A stretch of DNA of 61,046 bases from contig CAZBVS010000001.1 in assembly GCA_964495575.1 (NCBI GenBank), positions 1 to 61,046 on the forward strand. The letters are read 5' to 3'. The stretch's first letter is position 1. Each line of letters begins with the position of its first letter. The translations under genes and the position numbers were made by a program. Under the pieces are notes generated by a model. The model was given only the letters and a program-made list of their open reading frames with translations. It was not told the origin of the DNA and made no database searches. Source of the DNA: an uncultured Candidatus Saccharibacteria bacterium (GTDB lineage: Bacteria > Patescibacteriota > Minisyncoccia > UBA6257 > GWB1-50-10). Positions 1 through 58,191 of this stretch are shown piece after piece.

Positions 1-782
1 TTACTTTCAGAACTGTATTTAAAGTAAGTTCCATTTTTCCACACCAAACTCAACCCCCTTTCAGGGTTTATCATAAAGGTTAATTCTTTACTTTTTGTAT
101 TAAATTTCCATACCCTTGATCTATAAAACTCCGCTGTTTTTTCAGTGATTAATATTTTATTATCAGGAACATATTTAATATCAACATCATTAAAATCAAA
201 GTTTTGTAATAACACTTCATAATTTTTCTCTCCACTATTTTTTAATTCTTCAAAATCAAAAGAAACCAAGCTATTACCCTGATTAGTAGAAACTACTGCA
301 AAAACCTTATCCCCTGACCACGTTATATTTTGAATATAAGAAGGTAATGGGCGCCACACCCTGTCTTCAGTATCAAAAACCCCCCAGCTTGGAGATTTGG
401 GGTCACCAAACGAAATCAACACCTTATCGTTCGTATAATTTTTACGTATTCTATTTATTCCATTAAATTCTCTTCCTGATACTTCTGGATCAGGACCCGG
501 CTTAGCAGAAAATATTTTTCCAGTAGGGGTTATATATAATACCTCGCTAGTAGTAGAGTCCTCCCAAAAATCAAATACATTTTTATCTTCATCAGAAAGT
601 CTTGTTATTGTAAGACCTTCTTCTTGGGTTTGAGATGTGCTCGTGCTTGTTTTTAATTTCCCGTCATTAATATCCGGTGGTGATACAGGCTCTTTATCTG
701 AGGGTTTTAATATTAAAATTAAAACCACCGCAAAAATTACCAACACAGAGATAATAATTATTATTTTTGTTCTTTTTTTCAT
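1..782 (-). CDS. hypothetical membrane-anchored protein; N-terminal 260 codons, C-terminus lies beyond the window edge
   Basis: Not in the ORF track because there is no stop in the window. ATG at 782-780. My hand translation (MKKRTKIIIIISVLVIFAVVLILILKPSDKEPVS...VWKNGTYFKYSSES) stays open to nt 1. One N-terminal hydrophobic helix, then a beta-strand-rich W/G-containing region. Sits 17 nt downstream of the previous gene in the same orientation. Confidence 0.6.
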   Translation of the reverse strand, partial: MKKRTKIIIIISVLVIFAVVLILILKPSDKEPVSPPDINDGKLKTSTSTSQTQEEGLTITRLSDEDKNVFDFWEDSTTSEVLYITPTGKIFSAKPGPDPEVSGREFNGINRIRKNYTNDKVLISFGDPKSPSWGVFDTEDRVWRPLPSYIQNITWSGDKVFAVVSTNQGNSLVSFDFEELKNSGEKNYEVLLQNFDFNDVDIKYVPDNKILITEKTAEFYRSRVWKFNTKSKELTFMINPERGLSLVWKNGTYFKYSSES

Positions 783-798
783 GAATACTATTTAATTA

Positions 799-1842
799 TT
801 ATTGGCACGTATTTAATCCATCCAGATCAGCATATTTCCAACTATCCGTATGTATGTCAGTTTTCCAGGCATAAGGAACACATTTTACTCCATCATCCCC
901 TCCCGGATTTCCAGGGTCACCATTCATAGGGTAATATGGTGCTTTGTAATAAACACCCCCATTCTGGATTGTTATTTCATCCCATTCATCCCATTCGTCT
1001 TCACAGGTGTTACAAACAGGCACACTAATTGTTTCTTTTGTAACTCCCTCACAAATAACTTGACCTTCCGCAGTGCAACTGGGATTAATTCCTTCTGGAC
1101 AATTTACTACTATATTATCTGCTTGAGTTCCGCAATCATGAACCATTGTTCCTGTTCGGTTGTGTTTTACACACTTTGGGTCCATATTTTCTTTTATTGT
1201 TTGATTTTCTTCATTATAGCAATAAGGTTGAGTTTCTTCTCCTTCTCCCACAACAAACTTTTCTCCATTTACCGGACAATTAGACACAGTTTCTTCCGAA
1301 CAAACATTTGATTCGACACAACAACTCCACTCCCCTTCCACATTTTGTTCCGGGTTTTCTCCTTCTTCACAAGGCTCAAGGTTTGGGTATTGAGCACAGG
1401 ATGCGCCTGTTATATTAGTACTACCCTTTTCAAAACTTGAAACCCCTTTTATTTTCTCCCCATCCTGAGTTGCATACTGAGGGTTACTTAGCTTAGTTAA
1501 CTGAGGGTTCACCGTATTTAATATTACATAAGCCCCCAACAAAAGAACCAAACCGGAAATAGCGGAGACGATAATATCTTTTCCTTTATTTTTTTTATTT
1601 ATTGCTCCAGAAACAGCGTACATTATTCCTCCAATTACAATCACAAGAACTGCAGCTATACCCCCCAACACAATTGCCGTCTTGTAAAATTTATTAATTG
1701 TTCCTGAAATATCGTTCCCTGAAAGATTTTCATAACCAGTGATTTTTATAGGTTCATTACCAACGTCAGCCGCGTTTACCACAGCAAACATTACAAAGAA
1801 AAACAAAATTATAAATAACAGTGTAGATATTTTTTTAATCAT
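799..1842 (-). CDS. VirB2/TrbC-like T4SS pilin module fused to a large Cys-rich, acidic extracellular domain
   Basis: Signal peptide (...FAVVNA), then two hydrophobic helices split by a basic loop (GGIAAVLVIVIGGIMYAVSGAINKKNKGKDIIVSAISGLVLLLGAYVILNTV). This pattern matches the three small pilin-like ORFs at 56947-58191. About 220 further residues contain about 16 Cys. Overlaps the upstream gene by 8 nt. Confidence 0.65.
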   Translation of the reverse strand: MIKKISTLLFIILFFFVMFAVVNAADVGNEPIKITGYENLSGNDISGTINKFYKTAIVLGGIAAVLVIVIGGIMYAVSGAINKKNKGKDIIVSAISGLVLLLGAYVILNTVNPQLTKLSNPQYATQDGEKIKGVSSFEKGSTNITGASCAQYPNLEPCEEGENPEQNVEGEWSCCVESNVCSEETVSNCPVNGEKFVVGEGEETQPYCYNEENQTIKENMDPKCVKHNRTGTMVHDCGTQADNIVVNCPEGINPSCTAEGQVICEGVTKETISVPVCNTCEDEWDEWDEITIQNGGVYYKAPYYPMNGDPGNPGGDDGVKCVPYAWKTDIHTDSWKYADLDGLNTCQ

Positions 1843-2521
1843 TGATTTCTAATCTTAAATTTGTTTTAGCTGATTCCATTGGGTTGTTTAAATTAGAAAC
1901 CCAACCCGTGACTATAGTTTTAGTATTTATCAAAGATTTTGAATTTCCTATTTTTAAATTTAAAATATTACCCCTTTCAACATATTCTTTAGCGTTTATT
2001 ACCTTCCAAACAAAATTTAAATCATTTAAATTATTAACATTTAAAAAGTATGGAATAGATCTAATTGTTTTTTCTTCTCCTAAATTAATAGACTTATTTG
2101 GAGATGGGTAATCAACCACTATTTCATATGAAGAAATCGGAATTTTAATAGATTTTTCTAGAACTTTTTCTCCTTCTTCAATTCTTAATTTTATAAAATA
2201 TTCTTCTCCTACTTGCTTATTTATTTCAAAATTAATTTTATTTTCTCCCGCCCCTCTTTTTATTAAATTATTATTGTTATACCAAAAAAAATTTAAATTA
2301 GAATAATCTTTTATTTTATTATTTTCTAAAACAGTAGCCGAAACATTTATTTTTGAGTTTGGGGTAGCCTTAGGCTTACCTTGATAATTTGAAGGATAAA
2401 AGTTGTCAGCTTCCCAGGTAATAATTACCTCAGATCCATTTTCTGCTTTTACAATATTAACTCCTACCCCTACTAAAGTAGTTATTACCAAACTTATTAA
2501 TATTAATTTATATATTTTCAT
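1835..2521 (-). CDS. secreted hypothetical protein of the T4SS-like operon
   Basis: N-terminal signal or anchor (LILISLVITTLVGVGVNIVKA), beta-rich N/K/E composition. Translationally coupled to the downstream pilin-fusion gene. Confidence 0.6.
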   Translation of the reverse strand: MKIYKLILISLVITTLVGVGVNIVKAENGSEVIITWEADNFYPSNYQGKPKATPNSKINVSATVLENNKIKDYSNLNFFWYNNNNLIKRGAGENKINFEINKQVGEEYFIKLRIEEGEKVLEKSIKIPISSYEIVVDYPSPNKSINLGEEKTIRSIPYFLNVNNLNDLNFVWKVINAKEYVERGNILNLKIGNSKSLINTKTIVTGWVSNLNNPMESAKTNLRLEIND

Positions 2522-2548: not shown

Positions 2549-2923
2549 TTAACCATTCTTTTCTTCGTTTTTTTCTTCATCTTCTTCATCTTCTTCATCC
2601 TCATCTTCTTTTTCAGAATCTATATCTATTTCCATATTATGTATTACTACTTCTATTATAAACGAAGTTGTAACAGTGGGTATAATTGGTAAAAAGTTTG
2701 ATATCTGTTTCATTATCTGTCTTTTTAAACCCCAAGGTGTTTTTTCTCCCCCCTTTTTACCCAACCACCAGCTTGTTACAAAGCTTGATACGGATTGTAG
2801 TGGGGTTGCTAATAAATATCCCAACCCAGTCATATCAAGAAGTGCTGCCACCCCGTCTACGCTTAACCACAACAACACACCAATTACTATCTCAGAGGCG
2901 CTAAACTTTTTATATTCACTCAT
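2549..2923 (-). CDS. small membrane protein with poly-acidic C-terminal tail (T4SS-like operon)
   Basis: Hydrophobic segments (IVIGVLLWLSV..., LPIIPTVTTSFIIEVVI) followed by DSEKEDEDEEDEEDEEKNEEKNG. Start overlaps the virB4 stop by 8 nt. Confidence 0.55.
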   Translation of the reverse strand: MSEYKKFSASEIVIGVLLWLSVDGVAALLDMTGLGYLLATPLQSVSSFVTSWWLGKKGGEKTPWGLKRQIMKQISNFLPIIPTVTTSFIIEVVIHNMEIDIDSEKEDEDEEDEEDEEKNEEKNG

Positions 2924-4664
2924 TTTTTCGAAGTTCTAATAACTGCTCTGGGTCGGTTGTTATAATCTTATCCTCTGTGTAAGACGGAATTATCTTTATT
3001 GCCACGTGCTTTAATCCTACAAAGAACAATCCTTCTCCCACCTCCGCCTCCATCAAAAACTGTCTCTCGCTCCTCGTAAGATCAAATGTGTCCGCCAACA
3101 CTTTAATACTTGAAGGAGATTGTTTCATAAGAAGCTGCAGAGCGGAGTTAGTAACAATAGGTTTTCCATACTTTGAATCCATAAAATCTTCAACGTTTTG
3201 AGTTATAGTTGTGAGTCCTAAGTAATATTTCCTGGCTCTTTTAGCTAATCTAAACAAGAATGAGGCGCTATCTTCATATTCCATCATCCACCAAGCTTCA
3301 TCTATAATCAATAATCTTCTTTTTAGATTTGCTCTAATAAGACTCCATACAAAATTCAAAACTATATACATTGCAATAGGCCTCAACTCTTCTTCCAAGT
3401 CTCTTATTGAAAACACAATAAACCTATTTGTCATATCTACATCTGTAGGAGAGTTTGTAAAGCCTGAATAAGAACCACTTACATATTTTTCAAGTCTTTG
3501 AGCAAGTTTACTCCCTCCCTCAGTGTTATCTAATACTGTTTGAAAATCTTCTAATATAGGTGGATCAATATCTTTTTTACCGAAGTTTTCTGCGGTAATA
3601 TCCCGAGCAGCGTAAGTTTCAATAAGAGCTCTATCAATTAATGATTCTTCTTCAGGTTCAATATCACCTAACATTAACTTAATTAATCCAGTTAAATTTA
3701 GAATATGTGATTTAAATACATTAGCCGGATCTTCATCTTCTGGAATTACTGGTATATCAAAAGGATTTATATTATGAGGTGAGGTTAGTGATATTTTAAA
3801 GAAACTACCCCCTACAGCATCAGCTAGCGATTGATATTCTTCCTCCGGGTCTATTACCATTACATCCGTGCCCATCATCAATGTTCTTAATATCTCTAGC
3901 TTAGTAGCGTATGATTTTCCAGCTCCAGACTTAGCAAACACAACCGAGTTAGCATTTTCTAAATCAAAACGATCAAATATTACCAAACCGTTATTATGTA
4001 AATTAACTCCGTACATAATCCCTTCGTCTGAGGTTAGATCAGGTGAAACAAAAGGGAATAAAGAAGATGTTGGACCCGTATTTAAAGGCGTGTGAATCTT
4101 TAATTTATCTTCCCCTAACGGAAGAGTTGTTTTGAACCCTTCCACCTGCCTAAACAAGGCAGGTTTTATATATACCAACTTTGATTCAAGGGTTGAGGTA
4201 ATATCATTTTCAAGAGTGTTCAACTTCTCAATATCAGAGCCATAGATTGTTACATATACTCCAACTTTAAACATTTTTTCTGTTCCTTGCTGAAGAGTAT
4301 TTCTTAGGTTTTCAATATCACGATAAGCTGTTTCTAACTTTGGATTACTTACCAATCCCTTCTCCTCTTCTTCAGATATCTGAGCTTGAATTTCACCCAC
4401 CTTCTTTCTTAATTTTTTCAACGTAGTGGCCGTATCCATAGGATGAATGAATATTGATATATCCATCATCTCAGCCATATTAATAATTGGTGAAAACCAT
4501 CCTGTTGATAGATATCGGGGGTAAGTATAAACAAAGAATGTTTTTACATAATAATTATCAAGCTTTAAATAATTAGAGTTCTCTTTCATTCCAGCAGGAG
4601 CCACAATGTTAGCAATGTTTTCTTCTGATGGATTATATGATTTTGGAATTTTTATTTTAGACAT
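2916..4664 (-). CDS. virB4: VirB4/TrbE-family type IV secretion ATPase
   Basis: Walker A AKSGAGKSYATK, Walker B LLIIDEAWWMM, and the N-terminal motif YLKLDNYYVKTFFVYTYPRYLSTGWFSP typical of Gram-positive-type VirB4 proteins. Confidence 0.85.
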   Translation of the reverse strand: MSKIKIPKSYNPSEENIANIVAPAGMKENSNYLKLDNYYVKTFFVYTYPRYLSTGWFSPIINMAEMMDISIFIHPMDTATTLKKLRKKVGEIQAQISEEEEKGLVSNPKLETAYRDIENLRNTLQQGTEKMFKVGVYVTIYGSDIEKLNTLENDITSTLESKLVYIKPALFRQVEGFKTTLPLGEDKLKIHTPLNTGPTSSLFPFVSPDLTSDEGIMYGVNLHNNGLVIFDRFDLENANSVVFAKSGAGKSYATKLEILRTLMMGTDVMVIDPEEEYQSLADAVGGSFFKISLTSPHNINPFDIPVIPEDEDPANVFKSHILNLTGLIKLMLGDIEPEEESLIDRALIETYAARDITAENFGKKDIDPPILEDFQTVLDNTEGGSKLAQRLEKYVSGSYSGFTNSPTDVDMTNRFIVFSIRDLEEELRPIAMYIVLNFVWSLIRANLKRRLLIIDEAWWMMEYEDSASFLFRLAKRARKYYLGLTTITQNVEDFMDSKYGKPIVTNSALQLLMKQSPSSIKVLADTFDLTRSERQFLMEAEVGEGLFFVGLKHVAIKIIPSYTEDKIITTDPEQLLELRKNE

Positions 4665-4665
4665 A

Positions 4666-5307
4666 TTATTTTCTTTCTTTTTCTATAAACTGAGGATTAT
4701 ATAAATTGTATAATAACTCTGTTAATTCCTCGTCTTTTAATATTTTAACCCTTAACCCCACCTGTTCTAAACCTGACCGAACCTCATCTACTCTGTAATC
4801 TAATTGTTGTATTTTTTTTGCCTCAGACTCTTCTTTGTCTGTTTCTTCTTTAGTGTTTTTCCCAGTTAGAGAATTTATTATTCCTCCTAACCCCTTCTTT
4901 GTTTTTTCTACTACCTTAATAGGTTTATAAGGTACCACCACAAAGAAATTTTTAGTTATAATAGGGTTTTCTTCTACAAAAGATTCTATAAACTTGGCGT
5001 ATTCTTCTATCTGAACTTTTAATAACTCTTTTTTCTCTATATCTATTCTTTCTCTTATCTTTTCTAAATAAGAGTTTATATTTATTTTTCTAGAGTGAAT
5101 AAATATCTGGACCGGGAAATCCAAACCATTCAAAAAATTTTGAAAAGATCCTAATATTATTTCCTGCTCTTCTTCAGATTTTAAACTAAAGTTTATGCCA
5201 TTTACTATAAGTGCTTTTCTTAAAGCACCATTTTTCATGTAAATAACTCCGTTTTCCACCCTATCTACATCTACAAATTTTTGTGTTGCTTTTGTTTTTT
5301 CCGCCAT
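4666..5307 (-). CDS. T4SS-associated protein resembling the extreme N-terminal domain of Gram-positive VirB4-type ATPases (possible split VirB4)
   Basis: FVDVDRVENGVIYMKNGALRKALIVNGINFSLKSEEEQEIILGSFQNFLNGLDFPVQIFIHSRKI resembles, from memory, the N-terminus of Tn916-Orf16/TcpF-type ATPases. Its stop lies 1 nt before the virB4 start. Confidence 0.45.
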   Translation of the reverse strand: MAEKTKATQKFVDVDRVENGVIYMKNGALRKALIVNGINFSLKSEEEQEIILGSFQNFLNGLDFPVQIFIHSRKININSYLEKIRERIDIEKKELLKVQIEEYAKFIESFVEENPIITKNFFVVVPYKPIKVVEKTKKGLGGIINSLTGKNTKEETDKEESEAKKIQQLDYRVDEVRSGLEQVGLRVKILKDEELTELLYNLYNPQFIEKERK

Positions 5308-5343: not shown

Positions 5344-5850
5344 TTATTCTGAATAATCAACCCTCTTTGCTTTCTCCACTTCTCCTGTTAGATGTCTCAC
5401 CGTTTGGTAACGTTCTTGCTGGTCATTTTTTTCTTTATTTTTCTTTAGAAAAGGAATATTTCCGGTAGTTATATTTCTAACCGCTGATTTTATCTTTCCT
5501 TGCAACCCCATATTTTTTCTAACCGCCTTTATTTTTTCTACCGAAGAAGTGTCCAAGGTTGTAGTTTCAATATCCCTTTTCCAAACGTATTTTTTTGGTT
5601 TTTGCCAGAAATTAAGAGCGTGTAGTATTACTTTTGGTAATGGTTGTCCGTTAATTTTTACAAACGCCAAGCTCACTCCCAAACCTCCCGCAAAAATTAG
5701 TATTAAAAATGAGAAAAGAGGAGGAAGCGTATAAAAAGCAAGCACGCTTAATCCTCCAGCCCCCGCAATATACAAAAACTGAGTCAAAGTTAAAGGACCG
5801 ATTATTTTTGCTTTTTTGTCTATAAATTGTGGTACCTGAAACTGAGCCAT
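5344..5850 (-). CDS. PrgI-family (VirB3-like) T4SS membrane protein
   Basis: MAQFQVPQFIDKKAKIIGPLTLTQFLYIAGAGGLSVLAFY... followed by a second hydrophobic helix, the pattern of PrgI/VirB3 analogues. Located upstream of virB4, as in Gram-positive T4SS loci. Confidence 0.6.
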   Translation of the reverse strand: MAQFQVPQFIDKKAKIIGPLTLTQFLYIAGAGGLSVLAFYTLPPLFSFLILIFAGGLGVSLAFVKINGQPLPKVILHALNFWQKPKKYVWKRDIETTTLDTSSVEKIKAVRKNMGLQGKIKSAVRNITTGNIPFLKKNKEKNDQQERYQTVRHLTGEVEKAKRVDYSE

Positions 5851-5855
5851 ATGAT

Positions 5856-6737
5856 TTAATTTAGATTACTTAAATCAATAGTGTTACCTGAAACACTTGG
5901 GTTATTTTTCTTCTTATCTTTATCAATCTTTTTATTTTGCTTCTCAGGCTTACTTGCCGCTTCTTTTTGTTTTTGTGCTTCACCACTCTTATCAGGCTGC
6001 TTCCTAGGCTTATTTTTTTGATTAGCGATGTTTATAAAGCTTTTATCATTATCAGAAGAAGCAGGAGTTCTATACTCACTATAATGAACCGTTCTTTTCT
6101 GATCCTTTTTAGGTGTTTGAACCTTTGCAGAAGGACCATCTTTTTCTTGCTTTTCAAAGAAGTCTCCAAATGAAAATGAGAAATCTTTTTTCTGTTTTGG
6201 TCTCTCTTCCTCTCTTTTTTCTTCTTGGTGAATTACAAAAGGGGTCTCTTTATTTTTTTCTTCAGTTTTTTGACTTTCTTCTTTTTGAAATTCTGATTTA
6301 ATAAACTCTTTATCACCTTTTTGTTCCGGCTTTTCTTTGTGTGATATTTCGATGTTTCCAATTTTCTGATCCGTCTTGTGTTTTATGTTGGCTATGTTTG
6401 TATCCGTTTCTGCTACTGGTGAGTAAATCTCATTAAGTTCATCTAAGAACTGAGAGAATATTTTTTTATCTACCTTATCTGAAATTTGTTCAGCAACTTT
6501 TTTATCTATCTCTGTCTCCTTTAAGATTTTTTCATCTAGCTCTTCTTTATGTATAAACCCATATAGCACAAAAGAAACAAGCTTAAACAACTTCTCTGTT
6601 TTTATTTCATTAAGGTGGTGTTCTTTTGCTATCTGTAACAGAGTTTTTCCATACGCCGGAGAATACAAAGCCTTCCGAAGTTCCATCGGCATATTGTCCC
6701 ACCTTCTATCTATTTTGGCTTTTGGATAAGTAATCAT
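5856..6737 (-). CDS. hypothetical protein with structured N-terminal domain and K/E/Q-rich disordered tail
   Basis: Long ORF in operon register; the C-terminal two thirds is low-complexity charged sequence (KQKKDFSF..., KPRKQPDKSGEAQKQKEAASKPEKQNKK). Confidence 0.55.
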   Translation of the reverse strand: MITYPKAKIDRRWDNMPMELRKALYSPAYGKTLLQIAKEHHLNEIKTEKLFKLVSFVLYGFIHKEELDEKILKETEIDKKVAEQISDKVDKKIFSQFLDELNEIYSPVAETDTNIANIKHKTDQKIGNIEISHKEKPEQKGDKEFIKSEFQKEESQKTEEKNKETPFVIHQEEKREEERPKQKKDFSFSFGDFFEKQEKDGPSAKVQTPKKDQKRTVHYSEYRTPASSDNDKSFINIANQKNKPRKQPDKSGEAQKQKEAASKPEKQNKKIDKDKKKNNPSVSGNTIDLSNLN

Positions 6738-6768: not shown

Positions 6769-8748
6769 CTATTTATCTTTAGTTTCCCCTTCTTTGTCTT
6801 TACCACTTTTTTCTTCAGAAGATCCCGACTTGTCCTCTCCAGAGGACCCCTCTTCCGATCCTTCTTTATAATATGTTCCTCCACCACCTTCAAAGTTAGC
6901 GATTACATTCTTAAACCTCTTTAGCCCTTTTTCATCTCCCAATGTTGTAAGAGCTGCTTTGTATTCTGCTTCGAAATTATCTCTTCCTTTGGAGTCTAGC
7001 TTAGGCTCAATGCTGGACACAAGACCTTTATTTGTTTTAGCTATAGCTTTAGCAATCATTTGTGACGCTTCTTCTAATTTATCCTTTCCAATGCCTAACT
7101 TTTCCTTGCCGCTGAATATATCTTTGAGGGGTATGTCCTTCAAATCTTTTTTAAGTAATTTTCCGTAGAATTTTTCAGCCTCTTCATAAAATGTATCCGT
7201 ATCATCATTTTTTAACGCCTCCATCATTTCTAGTGTCATACCCAACTGTTTCTCAATCTTTTTGAAGGCTCCCTTTTCTCCATAATTCTCAAACAATCTT
7301 TTGTTATCCTCGGTAAGATGTTCTTTAGCATTAATTTTATTGATCTTTCCGTCTTTAGACAGACTTTTTAGAAGCTCTTTCTTCTCGGGTCCGGAAGCTC
7401 CTGGTAATTTGGCCAACTTTCTTTCTGTGCTCCAGCCTTTCATTTTCTTTTGGTACTCACTTGCCACCCCTTTCTTACCCTTGTCTTCAAGTGCGGTTAG
7501 CTGTCCCGCCACCCATGAAGCCGCTTTTCTACTAAACTTACCCGTTCGATTACCAGCCATCTCCCTTGCTTTACCAGCCAATGATTTATCACTTTCCTTA
7601 CCTTTCCTCCTTACTGGATAAGTCACAGCCCTCATAGCGTTTCTCTTAGCAAAGCTTGATGCCTTGCCCTTTGCCCAGCCCTTTGCCCAGCCTCCTGCAG
7701 ATTTAGCGATTCCAATTGCTCCTTTTGCTCCGTTGATTCCCATCTTGTCCGCGGCGTATAATCCGGCGAACATTAAAGCTGCAAGGACAATCATTTGAAT
7801 TCCCTGGTTTAATATTGCTCCTAAAGCAGCGTTTGAACTTGCAAAGTTAGCAGCGGCTGAATTAGCAAAATCTGCGTTTTTTATATTCTCTGCTCCCACT
7901 AACGTGAGGTAAATAAAGAATGACACTGCCGGAGCAAAGAAGGTCCATTTCAAAAAACTTTGCCACCAGTTTTGAAACTGGCTTTGTAGTTGGGGGATTA
8001 CCCATGCCAGCCATACTATCGGAGCAAGAACAAGCAAGAAAGTTAATACAACATAGCGAGCTAACAGCATAAAGGCTAAAGCCCCGAACACAATGGTTGT
8101 TAATCCGGTGAGTACTATGGTAAATATTATGTTTGTGACTCCTATAAGCAACGCGGAGCCCACCCCAATGCTCCCTTGGTTGTCTGGATCTACAGCAGGT
8201 ACTTCATTATCACTTGTTCCAATAACAAGTTTTTGAGGATTAAAAGCTCCCGCTATTGCTCCTGAAATTTGATACCCTCCGTTGCCTGGGTTTAAGAAGA
8301 ATTTAGTTAACGTATTTGAGAAACCGATTATGGGTGTAGCAATAGCCAAGCTAAAGTTAACAATTAAAGCCGCCGCAATAAGTTTAGGTAATAGTTTCTT
8401 CACCCCATACTGTTTGAACTGTACTATTGTGGCAAAACCTATAATGATTATTGCCAACACAAAACCCAAGTTTGCTAAATCACGAGTTATTTTCCAACCT
8501 TCTGAAATTAAGGTATTTGAATCATTTAAATTGTTTATATTATATTGCAGCATTACATCTGCTAAACTAGCCATCCAGTTTAGCAATGTACCTATAAAGA
8601 ACCTAAATATCTGAGCTATTACGTTTGTTATGGTAGAAGCAATATTTGCCGCCAAACCTGCGTTAGCAACTAACGGCAATGAAAACACTAATAAAGATAT
8701 TCCTAGTATCTTTAAAAGTTTTTTTCTTTTTTTAATAAAACTTTTCAT
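6769..8748 (-). CDS. TrbL/VirB6-like polytopic T4SS channel protein with long hydrophilic C-terminal domain
   Basis: Signal-like N-terminus, at least 6 long hydrophobic segments across residues about 20-340, then a roughly 300-aa K/E-rich soluble tail. Size, topology and position match VirB6/TrbL components. Confidence 0.6.
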   Translation of the reverse strand: MKSFIKKRKKLLKILGISLLVFSLPLVANAGLAANIASTITNVIAQIFRFFIGTLLNWMASLADVMLQYNINNLNDSNTLISEGWKITRDLANLGFVLAIIIIGFATIVQFKQYGVKKLLPKLIAAALIVNFSLAIATPIIGFSNTLTKFFLNPGNGGYQISGAIAGAFNPQKLVIGTSDNEVPAVDPDNQGSIGVGSALLIGVTNIIFTIVLTGLTTIVFGALAFMLLARYVVLTFLLVLAPIVWLAWVIPQLQSQFQNWWQSFLKWTFFAPAVSFFIYLTLVGAENIKNADFANSAAANFASSNAALGAILNQGIQMIVLAALMFAGLYAADKMGINGAKGAIGIAKSAGGWAKGWAKGKASSFAKRNAMRAVTYPVRRKGKESDKSLAGKAREMAGNRTGKFSRKAASWVAGQLTALEDKGKKGVASEYQKKMKGWSTERKLAKLPGASGPEKKELLKSLSKDGKINKINAKEHLTEDNKRLFENYGEKGAFKKIEKQLGMTLEMMEALKNDDTDTFYEEAEKFYGKLLKKDLKDIPLKDIFSGKEKLGIGKDKLEEASQMIAKAIAKTNKGLVSSIEPKLDSKGRDNFEAEYKAALTTLGDEKGLKRFKNVIANFEGGGGTYYKEGSEEGSSGEDKSGSSEEKSGKDKEGETKDK

Positions 8749-8757
8749 TATTTGTTC

Positions 8758-10518
8758 CTAATCATTTAATAATCCGTTACAACTTGATAATTTTAAATCT
8801 ATAGTCTCTTCCCTTTCTTCTACCCGAGCTTTTATTGTTTCAACATCCGAAGATATATTTCTTACCTCTTCTATCAAATCATAGAAATCACTTTGATATT
8901 TTTGTAATCTAAATGACTCTCCACTTTCTATAGTGGAGGTAACGTGTGAAACGTCGTAATCGTACCTGTTATCTATTTCTACTAATACTGAATTCCAGTC
9001 ATTCATATATAAATCGATAGAGTTAAATTTATTCCTAATCAAGGCTTTATCACTCTCTATGTTACTAAGGTATAACTCGGCCTTTTCTAATTTACTTTCC
9101 GCAGCAATTATTTCTTCTGAAGAAGCTTCCCCATCATTTTCTAAGCTCTCTAAAACCTCCTCTCTACATGATATCAATCCTTCTGTGGTAGTGGTCATAG
9201 AAAACGCTTCTTCGTTAACCTCTTTTGCTTCATGGAGGGTAGTGCTGGCAGAGGTTAGACTGATGCTGTCATTGCTATAATTTGCATGTTTAGTTTCTAG
9301 CTCACTCCGTAATTCTTGAAGATTTTCTACTTTTTGGTCTACAAAATCTTCTGTAGAGGTTGTGTTTATTAAATCCCTGTTTCTTTCAAAGTCATCAATT
9401 GCCCCCTCTAATTTTTCTGTTTGTTCCTCCTTAGCCATCTTATCTTTCAAGGCACCCTTTACTTCATCTGCAGCATTAGCAGCAGATTTTGCTGCATAAC
9501 AAGCAGCTCTTTCTCCTCCTTCTAGCTCACTACACTTTGCACTTTTATCCCCACTGGTTAGGTAGGTTAATCCATTTACTGTCTCTCTTGTTAACCTATT
9601 TATCCCTGCATTTATGATGGCGGCAATATAAGAACCGACCCCTTCTGTATTAAGTAAGGCATCTATATCAGATCCGAGAGCTTTAGTTGTAATTGATTTA
9701 GAAATTTGACTTGGGGTTACAATCTCAGTATTAGAACATTTCCAGTCTGATCCCAGTGGTGAATCCTCTCTTCCGTTCCATGAGTAACCATCAGGTGTTT
9801 CTGTGTAATTAAACTCTTCATGACCGGAAGTCACAGAAAAACCTTGATTATAAGTTTCATTTCCTGATGCTACCGCTCCATCATTTTTAGCAACCCATTC
9901 CGTACAACGTTTTGAGTTTAAGAAGCCTCCCGAATTTGAAACCTCTAGCTTACTTACGGTCTCTTTCTCTTCCTGTTTATTCATTACCTCTTGCTGAGTT
10001 AAAAATTTTATTCCCTGAGGGTTGTTTTGAGGTTTTAAGCTTTCTTGATAAGCTATCCACCCACCGTCTTGAAAGTTATCACCGAAAGCTTCTATATTTT
10101 CTACAATATCATCAAGAGTACACTGGACTCTCTCTCTAAAAACAGGCTGTTGCATATCAAACTTTAATTGAAATCTTAGGTCTTCATAACACAACTCTGA
10201 AGCTCCTAACTCTATAGCGGTATCTCCCACTGCTGCCTGAAACGAGTCTTCTAAAACACCGTCGAAGTTTTTAATAAATTTTGGGTCTCCATTGCCTTGA
10301 ATATACTCTATAATTCTATTGGTAGCCATGCTTAATAAGCGGTGTTTTAATGTCTGTAAAATAGTTTGAAGTACATTATCTACAATCCACGTACCTACTT
10401 CAGCTAGATCAATATTGAGATCAACTATCCCTAAAACAGCGTGAGCTCTTAGTGGATAAACCATTCCACTAAAAAGTATTAAAACTAAAAATAAAATTGA
10501 TATATTGGTTTTAAACAT
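8758..10518 (-). CDS. secreted hypothetical protein with Cys-containing N-domain and acidic coiled-coil C-terminal half
   Basis: Signal peptide MFKTNISILFLVLILFSGMVYPLRAHA. The C-terminal half is heptad-like and E/S/L-rich. Overlaps the upstream gene by 1 nt. Confidence 0.6.
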   Translation of the reverse strand: MFKTNISILFLVLILFSGMVYPLRAHAVLGIVDLNIDLAEVGTWIVDNVLQTILQTLKHRLLSMATNRIIEYIQGNGDPKFIKNFDGVLEDSFQAAVGDTAIELGASELCYEDLRFQLKFDMQQPVFRERVQCTLDDIVENIEAFGDNFQDGGWIAYQESLKPQNNPQGIKFLTQQEVMNKQEEKETVSKLEVSNSGGFLNSKRCTEWVAKNDGAVASGNETYNQGFSVTSGHEEFNYTETPDGYSWNGREDSPLGSDWKCSNTEIVTPSQISKSITTKALGSDIDALLNTEGVGSYIAAIINAGINRLTRETVNGLTYLTSGDKSAKCSELEGGERAACYAAKSAANAADEVKGALKDKMAKEEQTEKLEGAIDDFERNRDLINTTSTEDFVDQKVENLQELRSELETKHANYSNDSISLTSASTTLHEAKEVNEEAFSMTTTTEGLISCREEVLESLENDGEASSEEIIAAESKLEKAELYLSNIESDKALIRNKFNSIDLYMNDWNSVLVEIDNRYDYDVSHVTSTIESGESFRLQKYQSDFYDLIEEVRNISSDVETIKARVEEREETIDLKLSSCNGLLND

Positions 10519-11321
10519 TAAGTCTGTACATTATTTTTTAATTCCTCATATCTTTCGTTGATAATAGAGTGTAATTTACCACTTTCCTGAAGTATTATAG
10601 GTAAGTCTTGTATAGCTAGGTAAGCTTTCAAGGGATCATCCTCTCTATTTTTCATTGTTTTGTACATAGTCAATTTTTTTTGCCAAAGATTTAACATTTG
10701 AAGATGGTAGCTTGCCCAGTTTTCTGGAACCTCTATTTTTAATAAATCATCTATATGCTGGGGGACTGTATTAATAAATTTATCTAGTATTTCAGAATTA
10801 TTATCTTCTAGAAAACCTCTTAAAGCAGAAACTGAATTTTCGTTTTTTAATTCTTCAAAATTATTCCATAGAGTTTGATCTAGTTCTTCTATATATTCTA
10901 TTTCTCTTTCATCTGAAGTATTATCAACAACTTTTATATCCTTTTCTTTAAACTGAGGGTAATCAACCGTCTTATCTATATTTTCCAACCCTTCGATAGC
11001 GTTTTCTTGAGACTCAATTCCTCCACCCTCATCAACACTTTCTAATAATTTTATTGCATAAGAATCTACAAACCCCTTTGTTAAATTATCATTATCTTCA
11101 TCCCCTTCTTCGTTCTGGTCGTCTGTGTTTTTTTCAGGTAACCTTAAAAAGGAGCCATCATTTCCCTGCTTATAGCTGAGACTGGCATTTTGATCCTCCG
11201 GGTTAAAATTTTTATCCGGATCACCACTTTTTTTACTCTGATTATCTGATAATAAACCAACACTAATTACCACACCCAATAATAAAATTATTAGACCAAG
11301 TGTTTTTCTTGTGTTTAACAT
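10518..11321 (-). CDS. membrane-anchored hypothetical protein; first gene of the T4SS-like operon
   Basis: N-terminal anchor LGLIILLLGVVISVGLL followed by an acidic soluble domain. Preceded by an AT-rich divergent intergenic region. Confidence 0.55.
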   Translation of the reverse strand: MLNTRKTLGLIILLLGVVISVGLLSDNQSKKSGDPDKNFNPEDQNASLSYKQGNDGSFLRLPEKNTDDQNEEGDEDNDNLTKGFVDSYAIKLLESVDEGGGIESQENAIEGLENIDKTVDYPQFKEKDIKVVDNTSDEREIEYIEELDQTLWNNFEELKNENSVSALRGFLEDNNSEILDKFINTVPQHIDDLLKIEVPENWASYHLQMLNLWQKKLTMYKTMKNREDDPLKAYLAIQDLPIILQESGKLHSIINERYEELKNNVQT

Positions 11322-11389
11322 AAAATTTATTTGATTTATTATTATTATACATTATTTATATAGTATTTTTAATCAACACCATTATTTTT

Positions 11390-12031
11390 ATGAAGGCTTT
11401 AAATAAAATAGTGAGCTCAAAAACAGGGTTAATTTTATTAACCATTTTTTTAACTATTTTCAGTTCTATAAAAATTTATCCTGATAGCTTAATATTATCT
11501 AACATATTTTCAACCTTGTTAGCCCTTCTATTCTTTTTATTTGTTCCTGTTTTAATAATCAAAAAGGTGCTTAAAAAAGATTTATTAAGTTTTGGCTTTA
11601 ATTTTCCTAAAAAAACAAAAAAAGCCATTTTTTTGATTTTAATTTTCTTTTTAATATTCATCCCTATTCTTTTTTACTTAAGTAATCAGCTTAATTTTCA
11701 ATCTTATTATCTCAACCAACGAGGATTAAGTGCTGACAACTTTCTTATCTTAGGTGTTATTTTATCAGCAATATACTTTTTTTCTGAAGAATTTTTGTTT
11801 AGAGGCTTTCTTTTCTTCTTTTTATATAAAAAAATAGGCCCCCATACTTTTTGGGTGTTAAGCTTATTATTTGCCTTTCTGCATATAACCAAACCTATTC
11901 CTGAAATAATCGTTTCATTTTTTATAAGTATTACTTTGTGTTATTTATCATATAAAACCAAATCATTTCTACCGGCTTTTATCCTCCATTTTCTAATGGC
12001 TGTATTTACAAACTTTCTAATTCTTTTTTAA
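11390..12031 (+). CDS. CPBP-family (CAAX/Abi) intramembrane glutamic endopeptidase
   Basis: Polytopic protein with the motifs SEEFLFRGFLF (EExxxR), FAFLH and ILHFLMAVFTN. Confidence 0.75.
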   Translation: MKALNKIVSSKTGLILLTIFLTIFSSIKIYPDSLILSNIFSTLLALLFFLFVPVLIIKKVLKKDLLSFGFNFPKKTKKAIFLILIFFLIFIPILFYLSNQLNFQSYYLNQRGLSADNFLILGVILSAIYFFSEEFLFRGFLFFFLYKKIGPHTFWVLSLLFAFLHITKPIPEIIVSFFISITLCYLSYKTKSFLPAFILHFLMAVFTNFLILF

Positions 12032-12770
12032 TTTTTTTAATATCTCCAACATCAAGTCGCTGAGGCCTTATTTTTTTTGAGGCTCCTATTCTCTCTAAAA
12101 TTTGAGAGATTTTATCTTTATCTACCCCCAAACTAATATTTAAATTGTTCAAAACTGTTTTCCGCGGATGCTTAAAGATTACTCTCATGGTCTTATAGTA
12201 ACCGTCATCAACTGTATCTTTAAAAGGAATAATCTCTATTACCGCACTATCAACCTTAGGAACAGGCTTGAAACATTTTTTAGGGATGTAATCAACAATA
12301 TTAATTTTTCCCCAGACCTGAACACTAGCCGCGAGCCTATTCATCTTAGGTGGTCTAGAGGTAACTCTTTGAGCTACCTCTTTTTGAATAGTTAAAACTA
12401 TTTTTTCAGGTTTATTTTTTAACCCGCCTAAAACTCTAAATAGTTGACCGGTTATGTAATAAGGGATGTTTCCTATCACCTTGTACTCTCCTATTCTATC
12501 TGTAAGATTGGGCAAAATCTTTAATACATCCCCTTCCTTTATTTTTACATCCCCTTTAAAATCCTCTTCTAATTTTTTTGCTAGTTTTTTATCTTTCTCT
12601 ATCCCCACCAACTCAATACTTTCATCAACTGATATTAATTCCTTAGTCAAAGCCCCTTTTCCGGGTCCAATCTCAATAACGAAACCACCTTCAGATATCT
12701 CCAAGGCTTTTATAATAATCTCAACTTTATTTTTATCCTTTAAAAAATGTTGTCCTAAATATTTGCTCAT
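12006..12770 (-). CDS. rsmA: 16S rRNA (adenine1518/1519-N6)-dimethyltransferase RsmA/KsgA
   Basis: LGQHFLKDKNKVEIIIKAL...VIEIGPGKGALTKEL SAM-binding motif and NIPYYITG. Confidence 0.9.
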   Translation of the reverse strand: MSKYLGQHFLKDKNKVEIIIKALEISEGGFVIEIGPGKGALTKELISVDESIELVGIEKDKKLAKKLEEDFKGDVKIKEGDVLKILPNLTDRIGEYKVIGNIPYYITGQLFRVLGGLKNKPEKIVLTIQKEVAQRVTSRPPKMNRLAASVQVWGKINIVDYIPKKCFKPVPKVDSAVIEIIPFKDTVDDGYYKTMRVIFKHPRKTVLNNLNISLGVDKDKISQILERIGASKKIRPQRLDVGDIKKIKKELESL

Positions 12771-12806: not shown

Positions 12807-12879
12807 CTCCCCATAGTTTAACGGGATAAAACAGAGGATTCCTAATCCTCCGATCTGGGTTCAAGTCCTGGTGGGGAGA
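12807..12879 (+). tRNA. tRNA-Arg(CCT)
   Basis: Hand-folded cloverleaf of 73 nt: acceptor ctcccca/tggggag, D stem gttt/aaac, anticodon stem gagga/tcctc with loop ttCCTaa, T loop ttcaagt. Confidence 0.85.
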
Positions 12880-12887
12880 CAAAAAAG

Positions 12888-12970
12888 GGAGGGGTCGGAT
12901 AACGGCTATTCCACCACACTCGAAATGTGGCGCCCTTACGGGCTTGTGGGTTCAAATCCCACCCCCTCCG
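12888..12970 (+). tRNA. tRNA-Ser(CGA), type II with long variable arm
   Basis: Acceptor ggagggg/cccctcc, anticodon stem ccaca/tgtgg with loop ctCGAaa, variable arm cgcccttacgggc, T arm gtggg-ttcaaat-cccac. Confidence 0.85.
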
Positions 12971-12993
12971 CAAACTTTGGTATAATAAAAGTA

Positions 12994-13998
12994 ATGAACA
13001 TTTTTAATAAAGAAAACCAAATCACTAAGATTATCAACAAGGTTATGCCCGCCGTGGTTTCCGTAGTTGTTTCTGAAAACAACCATGAGGACAAGGTTTT
13101 TAACCTAAACGACCTCCCTTTAAAAAATAATGACGAAAATGACAGTGGAGGCTCAGGCTTTATTGTGAAAAAAGACGGCATAATCTTAACTAACCGGCAC
13201 GTGGTCACCAAAAACTCAGATTACCACGTTATCTTAAGCTCCGGTAAAAAACATAAAGCAGAAATTCTCGCTCGTGACCCTCTAAACGACCTAGCTTTGC
13301 TTAAAATAAAATCTGAAAAAGAACTCCCCACTATTCCACTAGGTGATTCAACTAATACGCAACTTGGACAAAAAGTATTAGCGCTAGGTAATATTATGGG
13401 ACTTTTCAAAAACACTGTCTCCCAAGGAATCATCTCTGGTCTTTCCCGATCGATCACCGCTCAAATAGAAAAAGATTCTGAGCCATCAGAGATGCGAGGT
13501 CTTATCCAAACAGATGCTGCAATTAATCCTGGTAACTCTGGCGGCCCCTTAATTAACATGTCAGGAGAAGCTATTGGCATCAATGTAGCTATGATTGCCG
13601 GCTTAGAAAACGTTGGTTTTGCTCTTCCCGTAAACATAGTTAAGAAAGACTTAAGGGAGATTCATGAATCAGGCCACATCACTAAACCATTCCTAGGAGT
13701 AAGATACTTAACAATAAACAAAGATTTAAGTAAAAAAATAAATCTCCCCGTTGATTACGGCGCTTTAGTTATCAAGGGTCACTCATTTGATAAAGCAGTA
13801 ATAAAAAACAGCCCTGCTGATAAAGCAGGTATAAAGAATAAGGATATAATCCTTGAATGGAATGGTCAGAAAATAACCTCAGAAAATAATATAAAAGATC
13901 ACCTTTCAAACTCTGAGGTGGGTGACAAGATAAACCTTAAAGTTCTAAGGGATAATCAAAAGATTGAGACCTCGCTTAAATTGACTGAGAGAAAATAA
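12994..13998 (+). CDS. HtrA/DegP-family trypsin-like serine protease with PDZ domain
   Basis: Catalytic His (LTNRHVV), Asp (DLALLKI) and Ser (GNSGGPLIN), plus a C-terminal PDZ-like region. Start moved to ATG 12994 because the ORF-track start at 12871 runs through two tRNA genes. A tataat box lies at 12981-12986. Confidence 0.85.
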   Translation: MNIFNKENQITKIINKVMPAVVSVVVSENNHEDKVFNLNDLPLKNNDENDSGGSGFIVKKDGIILTNRHVVTKNSDYHVILSSGKKHKAEILARDPLNDLALLKIKSEKELPTIPLGDSTNTQLGQKVLALGNIMGLFKNTVSQGIISGLSRSITAQIEKDSEPSEMRGLIQTDAAINPGNSGGPLINMSGEAIGINVAMIAGLENVGFALPVNIVKKDLREIHESGHITKPFLGVRYLTINKDLSKKINLPVDYGALVIKGHSFDKAVIKNSPADKAGIKNKDIILEWNGQKITSENNIKDHLSNSEVGDKINLKVLRDNQKIETSLKLTERK

Positions 13999-14000
13999 AC

Positions 14001-16445: not shown

Positions 16446-16535
16446 AATTTTGTATATAAAGTTTATTACTCATTAATACTTAGTATTCATTATTATAAAA
16501 ACAGTATCAACCCTTTCCCTCACTTTTTAATTTTA

Positions 16536-16566
16536 AAAAGGTCTCGGATAAAATCCGAGACCTTTT
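16536..16566. terminator. bidirectional intrinsic terminator-like hairpin
   Basis: ggtctcgga-taaaa-tccgagacc flanked by an A-run and a T-run, between tatD and leuS. Confidence 0.6.
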
Positions 16567-16586
16567 AGCATTATCAAATTTATGTA

Positions 16587-29428: not shown

Positions 29429-29511
29429 CTAAATTATACCTTAAAACCTGTCGCAAAACATGTGTAAAAAACTTGTATTGGGTTTTAATATGGTATAATG
29501 TTTACATTGAT

Positions 29512-56946: not shown

Positions 56947-57378
56947 ATGAATAATGTATTAAATATTTTAATAAGCGCTTTTGTTCTTTTATTAGTTGGC
57001 TTTTTTGCTTTTTCTCCGCTAGCGTTTGCTGCTCAGAAAGGTGCCCCCGATAGCGGCTCTATAATCTGGGAGGGGGTAACCTGTAATCAGCAAGGAGAAG
57101 ACCCTTGTGATTTTTGTGACATGATTAAGGTAGTCTCTAATATTGTTAATTTTCTAACCCGGTTAGCATATATAGTGGCCGCCGCTGTAATTGTAGCCGG
57201 GGGAGTGATGATAATGGTAAGTGGGGGTAATGAAAAAAGATTCTCTAAAGGTAAGAGTTTAATTACCAACGCTGTTATAGGTATTGTTATTACCTTAACC
57301 GCTTGGATTATTGTAAATACCCTTTTCCACATCATAACCGGTGATGAACAGTTTATTTGGTCCGAAATAGTGTGTTAG
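56947..57378 (+). CDS. VirB2/TrbC-like T4SS pilin paralogue with Cys-containing N-terminal segment
   Basis: Signal peptide ...PLAFAA, Cys segment CNQQGEDPCDFCDM, then helix-basic loop-helix AAAVIVAGGVMIMVSGGNEKRFSKGKSLITNAVIGIVITLTAWIIV. The protein ends in Cys. Confidence 0.65.
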   Translation: MNNVLNILISAFVLLLVGFFAFSPLAFAAQKGAPDSGSIIWEGVTCNQQGEDPCDFCDMIKVVSNIVNFLTRLAYIVAAAVIVAGGVMIMVSGGNEKRFSKGKSLITNAVIGIVITLTAWIIVNTLFHIITGDEQFIWSEIVC

Positions 57379-57387
57379 AATAAACAT

Positions 57388-57759
57388 ATGAAGAAATTAA
57401 CCTTATTTTTAATAACCTTCTTAGCCTTTACCTTTATCCTTGGAGTGCCTCATGTCCTAGCACAACAAGAAGGCTCCCCTACGGTAGGGTTAACTAACCC
57501 TCTTGAGGAATCAGGGGCTAACACGATAGGGGATGTTTTAACCAGAATTATTGATGGTCTTCAGGTTATCGCTATCCCAATAGCCGGTATTATGGTGTTA
57601 GTAGGTGGTTTTCAGATCCTTTTTGCTGCTGGAGACCCCGAGAAATTTAAGAAAGGTAAAAAAACAATCCTATATACAGTAATAGGTTATGCTATAATAT
57701 TAGTAGCTAACGGAATGGATAAATTAATTAAGGATATTTTGACACATTCCGTAGAATAA
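57388..57759 (+). CDS. VirB2/TrbC-like T4SS pilin paralogue
   Basis: Signal peptide ...PHVLAQ, then AIPIAGIMVLVGGFQILFAAGDPEKFKKGKKTILYTVIGYAIILVANG. Confidence 0.65.
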   Translation: MKKLTLFLITFLAFTFILGVPHVLAQQEGSPTVGLTNPLEESGANTIGDVLTRIIDGLQVIAIPIAGIMVLVGGFQILFAAGDPEKFKKGKKTILYTVIGYAIILVANGMDKLIKDILTHSVE

Positions 57760-57822
57760 TTAAAAGTATTTTAATAAAAGGTCGTTTGAAAATATAGTCG
57801 AATTAACAAATTAAAATTAACA

Positions 57823-58191
57823 ATGAAAGATAAACTATATAAAGCGTTAGTATTTATTCCTATGATTGCTTTGTTGGCTACTCCAGTTTTAGGACTAGCA
57901 GCGGATCAACAACCTGGTTCAAAAATAACTTCTTTGACTCAAGTTGAGCAGTTGCTAGGTGGAATACTTGGTTGGCTTACCAGCTTTTTGTATATTGCCG
58001 CAGCTATAATGGTTATTATCGCAGGTTTCACCTATCTTGGTTCTCAAGGTGACGAAGAAAAAGTTAAAAAAGCCAAGAATATGTTAATTTACGCTGTGAT
58101 TGCTGTCGCATTAGGTCTAGTGGCTGGTGGAATTGGTTCATTAGTAGATAATATATTAAGTTCCGGCACGACCCCTAATGTAGCTCCGTAA
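57823..58191 (+). CDS. VirB2/TrbC-like T4SS pilin paralogue
   Basis: Signal peptide ...PVLGLAA, then YIAAAIMVIIAGFTYLGSQGDEEKVKKAKNMLIYAVIAVALGLVAGG. Confidence 0.65.
   Translation: MKDKLYKALVFIPMIALLATPVLGLAADQQPGSKITSLTQVEQLLGGILGWLTSFLYIAAAIMVIIAGFTYLGSQGDEEKVKKAKNMLIYAVIAVALGLVAGGIGSLVDNILSSGTTPNVAP

Follow-up and report, generated by a model that had tools for sequence, protein, structure and literature searches.

The 61,046-nucleotide stretch of DNA analysed here (hereafter the window) carries a gene, pilCys, whose product is a VirB2-like hairpin fused to a cysteine-rich ectodomain, and which lies three genes downstream of a VirB4-type ATPase gene in an operon for a type IV secretion system (T4SS). 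In the Patescibacteria the T4SS is essential in S. epibionticum and VirB2-like pilins are present, while its function is unknown and a published survey states that 'No adhesins ... were detected' (PMC12102498, PMC10633639, PMC12857230). That survey literature counted every match to the pilin family PF18895 as 'VirB2', regardless of length or architecture (PMC12102498). The window itself is ordinary Patescibacterium chromosomal DNA, with tRNA synthetases, GyrA, NusA, FtsK, PNPase, RNase J and eight tRNAs at 30-42% GC.

A VirB2-like hairpin fused to a cysteine-rich ectodomain

The gene and the parts of its product are as follows (aa, amino acids; TM, transmembrane helix).

799..1842, minus strand: pilCys, whole gene, from the ATG at 1842 to the TAA at 799; 347 aa plus stop, with full-length homologues P0002-P0005
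1771..1842, minus strand: predicted signal peptide, residues 1-24, MIKKISTLLFIILFFFVMFAVVNA followed by AD; from hydropathy and an AxA-like site, the cleavage being putative
1489..1713, minus strand: pilin module, residues 44-118; TM1 at about 55-77, basic cytoplasmic loop KKNKGK, TM2 at about 90-110, junction LNTVNPQLTKL at 108-118
1402..1488, minus strand: cysteine-free linker, residues 119-147 (alignment A1); 90% identity to P0002
1273..1401, minus strand: cysteine-rich start, residues 148-190, with C149, C158, C174, C175, C181 and C189; pattern SC..P....CEEGENP......CC
1045..1272, minus strand: fast-evolving centre, residues 191-266; 6 Cys, indel-rich, absent from P0005, 27-38% identity within the family
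802..1044, minus strand: C-terminal beta module, residues 267-347; C277..C280.D.W ... GGVYYKAPYYP ... C321-VPYAWK ... DLDGLNTC346-Q

The hydropathy profile has a segment at residues 1-24 (ending in VNA, before AD), helices at about 55-77 and about 90-110 and the loop AINKKNKGKD, which bears out the signal peptide and helix-basic loop-helix layout proposed in an initial annotation of this DNA. PF18895 (T4SS_pilin) matches residues 44-110 over profile positions 4-70 of 71, with an E-value of 1.1e-7 and 32.2 bits against a curated gathering cut-off of 26.6 bits; the TrbC family, PF04956, scores 16.6 bits on the same protein, under its own cut-off. In its match to the profile hidden Markov model (HMM), its helix layout and its linkage to a T4SS, pilCys is thus a PF18895 pilin, but it is not a module-only protein of about 70-150 aa: at 347 aa, it continues for 228 aa past the module.

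Those residues (119-347) form an acidic ectodomain of 228 aa. Exactly 16 cysteines are present in the protein, all between residues 149 and 346 and none in residues 1-125, so that the cysteine content of the C-terminal 222 residues is 7.2% compared with 0.5% over the long open reading frames (ORFs) of the window. The C-terminal part also has 41 D/E against 13 K/R (a net charge of about -28), 5 Trp and 9 Tyr. The acidic domain of some 220 aa and about 16 cysteines that the initial annotation had described is therefore real and can be given exact figures.

A fusion of this kind could in principle be an artefact, with the genes of a short pilin and of a secreted cysteine-rich protein joined by a frameshift or a mis-assembly, and the initial annotation had itself named this case. 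We consider its probability negligible. The same uninterrupted ORF recurs in five independent 90%-identity clusters, that of the window and four others, from different samples (NCBI, JGI, ENA and Logan assemblies), the homologues having 58% (P0002), 52% (P0003), 47% (P0004) and 35% (P0005, which is shorter) identity to pilCys. An ectodomain without a pilin module was never seen among 5.8 billion clusters or 1.84 billion representatives, so that the search for the domain alone suggested earlier returned it only in its attached form, and the architecture is shared by orthologues in 19 loci. Taken together, these observations exclude the two-gene explanation.

Stand-alone pilins are encoded elsewhere in the window.

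56947..58191, plus strand: three stand-alone VirB2-like pilins (143, 123 and 122 aa), all matching PF18895 above the cut-off; 55 kb from the operon

Their PF18895 scores are 33.8, 48.0 and 33.5 bits. The kinship between the pilCys module and all three, as first proposed, holds at the level of this shared family, and in pairwise BLASTP the fused module and the 143-aa pilin have 46% identity over 54 aa (E 3e-10); the same comparison with the 123- and 122-aa pilins gave no significant similarity. The (I/V)NP junction motif that follows TM2 in pilCys is absent from the short pilins examined, the three of the window and two of another T4SS locus (L031). The 143-aa pilin (56947-57378) has four cysteines, those of CNQQGEDPCDFC ahead of the hairpin and one at the C-terminus, and the other two short pilins have none.

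The T4SS operon and the fused pilins of related genomes

The operon to which pilCys belongs comprises the following genes in addition, the name TrsD being taken from PMC12102498.

10518-11321, minus strand: g267, by operon synteny; no Pfam match
8758-10518, minus strand: g586, by operon synteny; no Pfam match
6769-8748, minus strand: 659-aa polytopic VirB6/TrbL-like protein; weak TrbL_3 match in the orthologue of locus L001, no Pfam match in the window copy
5856-6737, minus strand: g293, by operon synteny; no Pfam match
5344..5850, minus strand: PrgI (VirB3-like), PF12666 at 2.7e-10
4666..5307, minus strand: separate TraC-N/TrsD-like ORF, 213 aa, by Pfam and synteny
2916..4664, minus strand: VirB4-type ATPase, 582 aa, PF19044 P-loop_TraG at 5.8e-26; 32 related loci
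2549..2923, minus strand: g124, small membrane protein with an acidic tail; conserved operon member
1835..2521, minus strand: g228, 228 aa, hydrophobic segment at the N-terminus; 8-nt overlap of its stop with the start of pilCys; syntenic in about 14 loci
1..782, minus strand: partial gene of the operon, downstream of pilCys (its L001 counterpart, at 11096-12238, encodes about 380 aa); N-terminal TM, 2 Cys; conserved with the operon

The 8-nt overlap of g228 and pilCys suggests translational coupling, and the gap between the pilCys stop and the next gene is 16 nt in the window and in L001 alike. The window VirB4, used to scan 185,579 species genomes, identified 32 loci (L001 and so on), 26 of which lie in Patescibacteria-type genomes (Paceibacterota, Jorgensenbacteria, Parcubacteria, Magasanikbacteria and similar labels) at 49-84% identity; the other six have about 30% identity and are mostly labelled Altiarchaeota. 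When each window protein was compared by phmmer with all ORFs of these loci, the order g267-g586-VirB6like-g293-PrgI-TrsD-VirB4-g124-g228-fusion was found to be kept in about 14 of them, all from Paceibacteria, with the fused pilin as the last or second-to-last gene of an operon of about 11 genes. In six loci (L013, L015, L018, L019, L020 and L022) the order at the end is swapped and a homologue of the downstream gene separates g228 from the fused pilin, which identifies that gene as a member of the operon. On L001 (GCA_964504895.1), the closest long contig, R3H, yidC, rnpA and dnaA come after the same gene order, a placement that agrees with the published observation that Patescibacteria T4SS clusters often adjoin the replication origin (PMC12102498).

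The TraC/TrsD-like N-terminal part is split from VirB4 as an ORF of its own in nearly all related Patescibacteria loci covering the upstream region; the same split occurs in the Altiarchaeota-labelled loci, where the separate ORF has about 300 aa. Elsewhere in the window, the listed GTG start of an HtrA-like protease ORF (12871-13998) overlaps a tRNA-Ser gene (12888-12971), and the real start probably lies further downstream. At 28598-30555, a tyrosine recombinase (Phage_integrase) stands beside a LysM plus Peptidase_M23 protein, the sole wall hydrolase recognised in the window, which is unlinked to the T4SS operon.

An HMM built from the pilin modules was run on all ORFs of the VirB4 loci, of which 21 from Patescibacteria extend far enough. 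In 19 of these 21, a pilin-module protein is encoded 1-6 kb downstream of VirB4 and continues past the module for 130-440 aa, with 3-20 cysteines in this C-terminal extension. The initial annotation had started from the premise that VirB2-type pilins lack an appended domain, and with 19 of 21 loci having one, this premise has to be given up: a pilin with an appended domain is not exceptional in Patescibacteria. The number of cysteines is even in 24 of 25 complete, non-redundant extensions (binomial P 7.7e-7, for related lineages and counts of 3-20), as would fit oxidised, disulfide-bonded extracytoplasmic domains. Directly after TM2, the junction motif L-x-[TSFVN]-[IV]-N-P-x-[LI]-x-x-[LF] is found in 29 of 29 fused modules, whatever the domain appended. 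This motif and the beta module characterise the fused pilins, pilCys has both, and judged by such sequence features the fused pilins are a distinct subfamily of PF18895 proteins. As far as the searchable literature shows, these operon-terminal proteins are a widespread yet undescribed class; T4SSs with VirB2-like pilins were already known in Patescibacteria, and pilin plus hydrolase architectures are detectable with existing Pfam models. Within the class, the cysteine-rich domain of pilCys appears as a rare, lineage-restricted version.

Many relatives go on beyond the beta module. A further 100-200 aa are present in L008, L012, L013, L015, L018, L019, L020 and L022, and an alignment of this added domain from seven of these loci (not L008) with P0007, P0010 and P0011 has invariant G, G, H, D, H and H. 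In a search of the PDB with its profile, every one of the top 23 matches was a Hedgehog N-terminal domain (E 0.011-0.65, mostly below 0.1), and Pfam gave weak matches only, to Peptidase_M15_3, HH_signal and M15_4. On account of the invariant H/D/H/H and the consistent weak matches to Hedgehog domains, we tentatively assign the added domain to the LAS-type zinc peptidases. More distant loci encode T4SS_pilin+Peptidase_M15_4, T4SS_pilin+Peptidase_M15/VanY and T4SS_pilin+SLT_3 (PF18895+PF18896) proteins, all above Pfam cut-offs, the Peptidase_M15_4 and SLT_3 forms being those of L027-L030. The window family, L007, L017, L011 and L021 end 0-4 residues past the last Cys of the beta module and have no added domain; neither Pfam nor NCBIfam detects a peptidoglycan-hydrolase domain in pilCys, and an HMM of the LAS domain, built from the orthologues, matched none of the window ORFs.

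Tandem fused-pilin pairs with identical or near-identical hairpins and differing appended domains occur in L020, L028, L029 and L030, and show duplication with domain swapping. The L020 paralogues (13845-15389 and 16310-17707) share the pilin module in identical form; the LAS domain is present in one, and the C-terminus of the other resembles SLT_3-bearing proteins by eye, although Pfam detects its pilin module only. The pairs of L028 and L030 combine SLT_3 and Peptidase_M15_4.

Pilin modules with other arrangements were also seen. The contigs L032 (12181-14302) and L033-L037, mostly labelled Altiarchaeota, carry the VirB4 homologues of about 30% identity and, after them, pilin-module proteins, of which one has 495 aa, 32 Cys and the module near its C-terminal end (312-370) and another has 187 aa and 15 Cys. 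In P0008, a 443-aa protein from Uhrbacteria, a pilin module is accompanied by 26 Cys spread across an N-terminal part of about 125 aa and a C-terminal part of about 240 aa, which suggests that cysteine-rich decoration of PF18895 hairpins arose repeatedly.

Anatomy and divergence of the ectodomain

By its pattern of conservation, the ectodomain is tripartite: its cysteine-rich start is semi-conserved, its centre evolves fast and its 80-aa beta module is conserved. In the start, C149, C158, C174 and C175 are invariant in five family members (alignments A1 and A2), and the pattern is also visible in the orthologues of L007, L011, L008 and L022. In the beta module, C277, C280, W284, C321 and C346 are invariant among family members. 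An HMM of this module matches the fused pilins of L017 (1e-15), L022 (2e-9), L007, L021 and L014 (about 1e-5) and L013, L011 and L008 (1e-3 or below), and finds essentially nothing else among the 1533 ORFs of the loci. The 19 sequences of alignment A3 have the core W/Y-x-x-P-Y-Y/F ... C-x-[IVP]-Y-A ... DL-x-x-L-x-x-C, with Y37, C55 and C80 invariant. Modelled on its own with AlphaFold2 (AF2), the module reached a predicted local distance difference test (pLDDT) score of 72.7, with four strands of at least three residues and a beta-bridge, and a fold search of this model against the PDB gave no match (best E 1.4, TM-score below 0.35). No described family corresponds to the 80-aa 'YPYY / C-x-I-Y-A-Y / DL-x-G-L-x-x-C' module.

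Taken as a whole, the ectodomain is nearly an orphan, confined to five 90% clusters and without a Pfam, NCBIfam or PDB match. A profile search of the 5.8 billion clusters returned the five family members only, and phmmer against the 1.84 billion representatives returned only the query, P0004 and P0012. The last, a 3181-aa SprB-type repeat protein, was rejected as a repeat or compositional match (40 repeated stretches, 25% identity). A pattern scan found no instance of the ectodomain in the 185,579 species genomes and two contigs in JGI metagenomes. A profile search with A3 returned nothing, not even the query, which we read as the word-index limit for a short divergent profile and not as evidence. 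Strong negative charge (-12 to -35) is confined to the window family, L007 and L017; elsewhere the ectodomains have charges between about +2 and -18 and are mostly near neutral, so acidity was rejected as a trait of all fused pilins.

Rates of nonsynonymous (dN) and synonymous (dS) substitution were compared by region between the window and its L001 orthologues, with dS about 1 across the operon. Amino-acid identities to L001 are as follows.

Pilin module, residues 44-118: 93%, dN/dS 0.04
Linker, residues 119-147: 90%, dN/dS 0.07
Cysteine-rich start, residues 148-190: 63%
Centre, residues 191-266: 27%, dN 0.9, dN/dS about 0.55
C-terminal module, residues 267-347: 55%
Fused pilin, whole: 63%
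VirB4: 99%, dN/dS 0.007
TrsD-like protein, g124 and PrgI: 92-94%
VirB6-like protein: 84%
g293: 79%
g228: 51%
g586: 35%
g267: 30%

The fast-diverging group of the operon thus consists of g267, g586, g228 and the pilCys ectodomain, and g267, g586, g228 and the fused pilin may together be the exposed part of the machine. At the nucleotide level, blastn could not align window positions 1316-840 to L001, although both flanks align. Such a picture might be taken for a hypervariable cassette between near-identical strains; this was rejected, as a dS of about 1 across the operon means that these genomes have diverged considerably, and the contrast between 99% identity in VirB4 and 27% in the centre stems from unequal constraint.

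Allele exchange was seen directly in one case. The fused pilin and the next 1.2 kb of L005, as aligned by BLAST, are 99.4% identical in nucleotides to L001, with 7 differences over 2.6 kb downstream in a direct comparison, whereas the g228 fragment of L005 (1-378; L001 9623-10000, window 1843-2220) has 57% nucleotide identity to L001 and resembles the window allele, the g228-plus-pilin stretch of L005 being about 83% identical to the window. L005 is a recombinant with its breakpoint at the g228/pilCys gene boundary, and this is the only recombination directly shown.

Mutagenesis of pilCys by a diversity-generating retroelement was considered and rejected. Blastn of pilCys against the whole window gave chance matches of at most 34 nt, with no template repeat and no internal repeat, no reverse transcriptase is present among the window ORFs scanned, and the alleles of one cluster differ by 1-4 residues only.

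Candidate roles of the fused pilins

We tentatively interpret pilCys as a T4SS-integrated, surface-exposed host-contact subunit, a reading whose probability we would place just short of even. The protein would be inserted by Sec, and its signal peptide presumably cut after VNA24; the first helix would run from outside to inside, the basic loop would be cytoplasmic by the positive-inside rule, and the second helix would return to the outside, leaving residues 119-347 outside the membrane, where they would be locked by eight disulfides. The hairpin would then most likely dock in the T4SS, or co-assemble with the short pilins encoded elsewhere in the genome, and the ectodomain would sit on the outside or at the end of the assembled structure. 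The variable centre would contact a changing external partner, most plausibly the host-cell surface of an epibiont, and pilCys would be an adhesin or host-contact element absent from the published T4SS surveys; in sister lineages, the same scaffold bears a cell-wall peptidase or lysozyme-like domain as well. Several observations are consistent with this course of events. The hairpin is constrained like the core parts of the machine (dN/dS 0.04), which argues that it is more than a passive anchor, and a fast-evolving centre together with allele exchange fits contact with a variable partner. In the F-pilus, both termini of the VirB2-type pilins face the outside of the filament, which would allow a C-terminal domain to be displayed, at any rate on a subunit that is minor or terminal.

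Other results weigh against a host-contact role. Whether any Patescibacteria T4SS builds a pilus is not known (PMC12857230). No binding domain, lectin fold or adhesin family, and indeed no Pfam or NCBIfam match of any kind, was found in residues 119-347, and neither the ectodomain nor the module profile, g228 or g586 gave a match in PDB sequence searches. Over residues 18-261 the full-length AF2 model is unusable (mean pLDDT 47), with values of 30-50 in the ectodomain outside the beta module. Positive selection in the centre is not demonstrated, as its dN/dS lies below 1 at a saturated dS, at which relaxed constraint looks alike and the two are indistinguishable. There is also no strain-level hypervariation, alleles within 90% clusters differing by only 1-4 residues, which bears on the test of variability across strains that the initial annotation had proposed. 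Finally, the peptidase or lysozyme-like domains of some orthologues speak for a function at the wall over pure adhesion. Of the initial interpretation, then, the fusion of a pilin with a disulfide-rich domain, its membership in a T4SS operon and an ectodomain evolving faster than the core have held, the supposed rarity of the architecture has not, and its label of tip adhesin or minor pilin is an inference; it had not considered the role in remodelling or piercing the cell wall that is raised by the hydrolase-type domains of the orthologues.

Those domains speak for the main rival to a host-contact role, in which pilCys is a VirB1-like component of the cell-wall zone: the hairpin would anchor a scaffold that ancestrally positioned a hydrolase to open the bacterium's own wall, the hydrolase would here have been lost or be supplied in trans, and the cysteine-rich part would be a rigid spacer through the wall. 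We regard this as rather unlikely. In its favour, VirB1 is missing from most Patescibacteria T4SS loci (PMC12102498), and in Gram-positive bacteria the T4SS employs hydrolases of VirB1 type, PrgK and TraG among them, that are anchored in the membrane (PMC12857230). Orthologues in the same position carry the G,G,H,D,H,H domain after the beta module, with best PDB matches to Hedgehog N-terminal domains, of LAS fold; the distant loci have Peptidase_M15_4, Peptidase_M15/VanY or SLT_3 on the T4SS_pilin module; and one of the L020 paralogues has a LAS domain while the other resembles SLT_3 proteins to the eye. However, the window protein and its closest relatives have neither a hydrolase domain nor a remnant of one, with only 16 nt to the next gene, and no window ORF contains a LAS-type domain. 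A divergence in dN about 100-fold faster than that of VirB4 is not what one expects of a housekeeping spacer, and the constraint on the hairpin goes beyond the needs of a passive anchor. A possibility that joins the two roles, and which we consider improbable, is that the fused pilins are VirB5-like nucleating or tip subunits of a pilus made by this monoderm T4SS: the hairpin would seed or cap a filament of short pilins, the head, locked by disulfides and bearing the variable centre (plus a zinc peptidase or lysozyme-like domain in sister lineages), would recognise and locally breach the host wall, and the essential T4SS would serve epibiotic Patescibacteria as a wall-piercing conduit for uptake or delivery.

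The strict junction motif, kept after TM2 in every fused module irrespective of the appended domain, could also be read as a processing site. The hairpin would then be a carrier for membrane insertion or recognition by the T4SS, and the ectodomain would be cut at (I/V)NP and released to act on the host as a disulfide-rich effector or toxin-like protein. In favour of this, paralogues have exchanged their appended domains, which are modular, and TrbC and VirB2 pilins are known to undergo C-terminal processing. Against this stand the lack of evidence of cleavage, a motif that could equally be a helix-breaking hinge, the conservation within the family of the linker (119-147) as well, and the absence of similarity to known toxins or effectors in Pfam, NCBIfam and the PDB; release of the ectodomain therefore seems to us quite unlikely. 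We give still less credence to a generic surface protein that merely lies by T4SS genes, uses the pilin-like hairpin as its anchor and has no part in secretion. Such a protein would be in keeping with an operon of unknown function and an ectodomain without any T4SS-specific signature, but the place of pilCys after VirB4-g124-g228 is kept across lineages at only 65-80% VirB4 identity, the gene overlaps the one upstream, and the hairpin is constrained as the core parts are.

Comparison with known T4SS components sets the host-contact proposal in context. With the Patescibacteria VirB2/TrbC-type pilins (such as the essential S. epibionticum array SEML1_0014-0019), pilCys shares the Pfam family, the helix layout and an encoding with a monoderm-type T4SS (PrgI, TrsD, VirB4, VirB6-like) near dnaA with no relaxase in view; unlike those stand-alone proteins of about 125-185 aa, it has the 228-aa disulfide-rich ectodomain and the (I/V)NP junction. 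In the Trw system of Bartonella, variants of the pilin and of VirB5 set host specificity (PMC12857230), and pilCys resembles VirB5 (TrwJ) and the variable Trw genes in being proposed as a T4SS-borne, sequence-variable element of target contact. It is not itself a VirB5 protein, and differs in having no Pfam or NCBIfam match in residues 119-347, in the lack of any fold match for its beta module, the only part modelled, in the covalent fusion of the putative binding part to a VirB2-like module, and in belonging to a monoderm. Like PrgK (pCF10), TraG (pIP501) and Orf14 (Tn916), pilCys combines an N-terminal anchor with extracytoplasmic domains in a monoderm T4SS operon, and its orthologues carry LAS/M15 domains and the more distant loci SLT_3, in the manner of VirB1-type hydrolases. 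Its anchor, however, is a VirB2-like hairpin in place of a single TM helix, and where those proteins have SLT, CHAP, LytM or muramidase domains, the hydrolases fused to pilins are LAS/M15 and SLT_3, and pilCys itself has none. Formal parallels also exist in the database architectures T4SS_pilin+SLT_3 and T4SS_pilin+Peptidase_M15_4, which likewise join a PF18895 module to an extracytoplasmic domain, but the appended domain of pilCys matches no Pfam, NCBIfam or PDB entry.

The T4SS is widespread in Patescibacteria and is the only one shown to be essential for the survival of its carrier (PMC12102498, PMC10633639, PMC12857230). Within this system, the fused pilins make up a subset of the 'VirB2' proteins that is large, disulfide-rich and placed at the end of the operon, evolves fast on the outside and under strong constraint in the membrane, and often bears wall peptidase or lysozyme-like domains. 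The fusion is more general than was first seen, and scoring every PF18895 match as a simple pilin mixes two kinds of protein. For a secretion system on which its carrier depends, the fused pilins are a concrete candidate for the element that contacts the host or breaches a wall.

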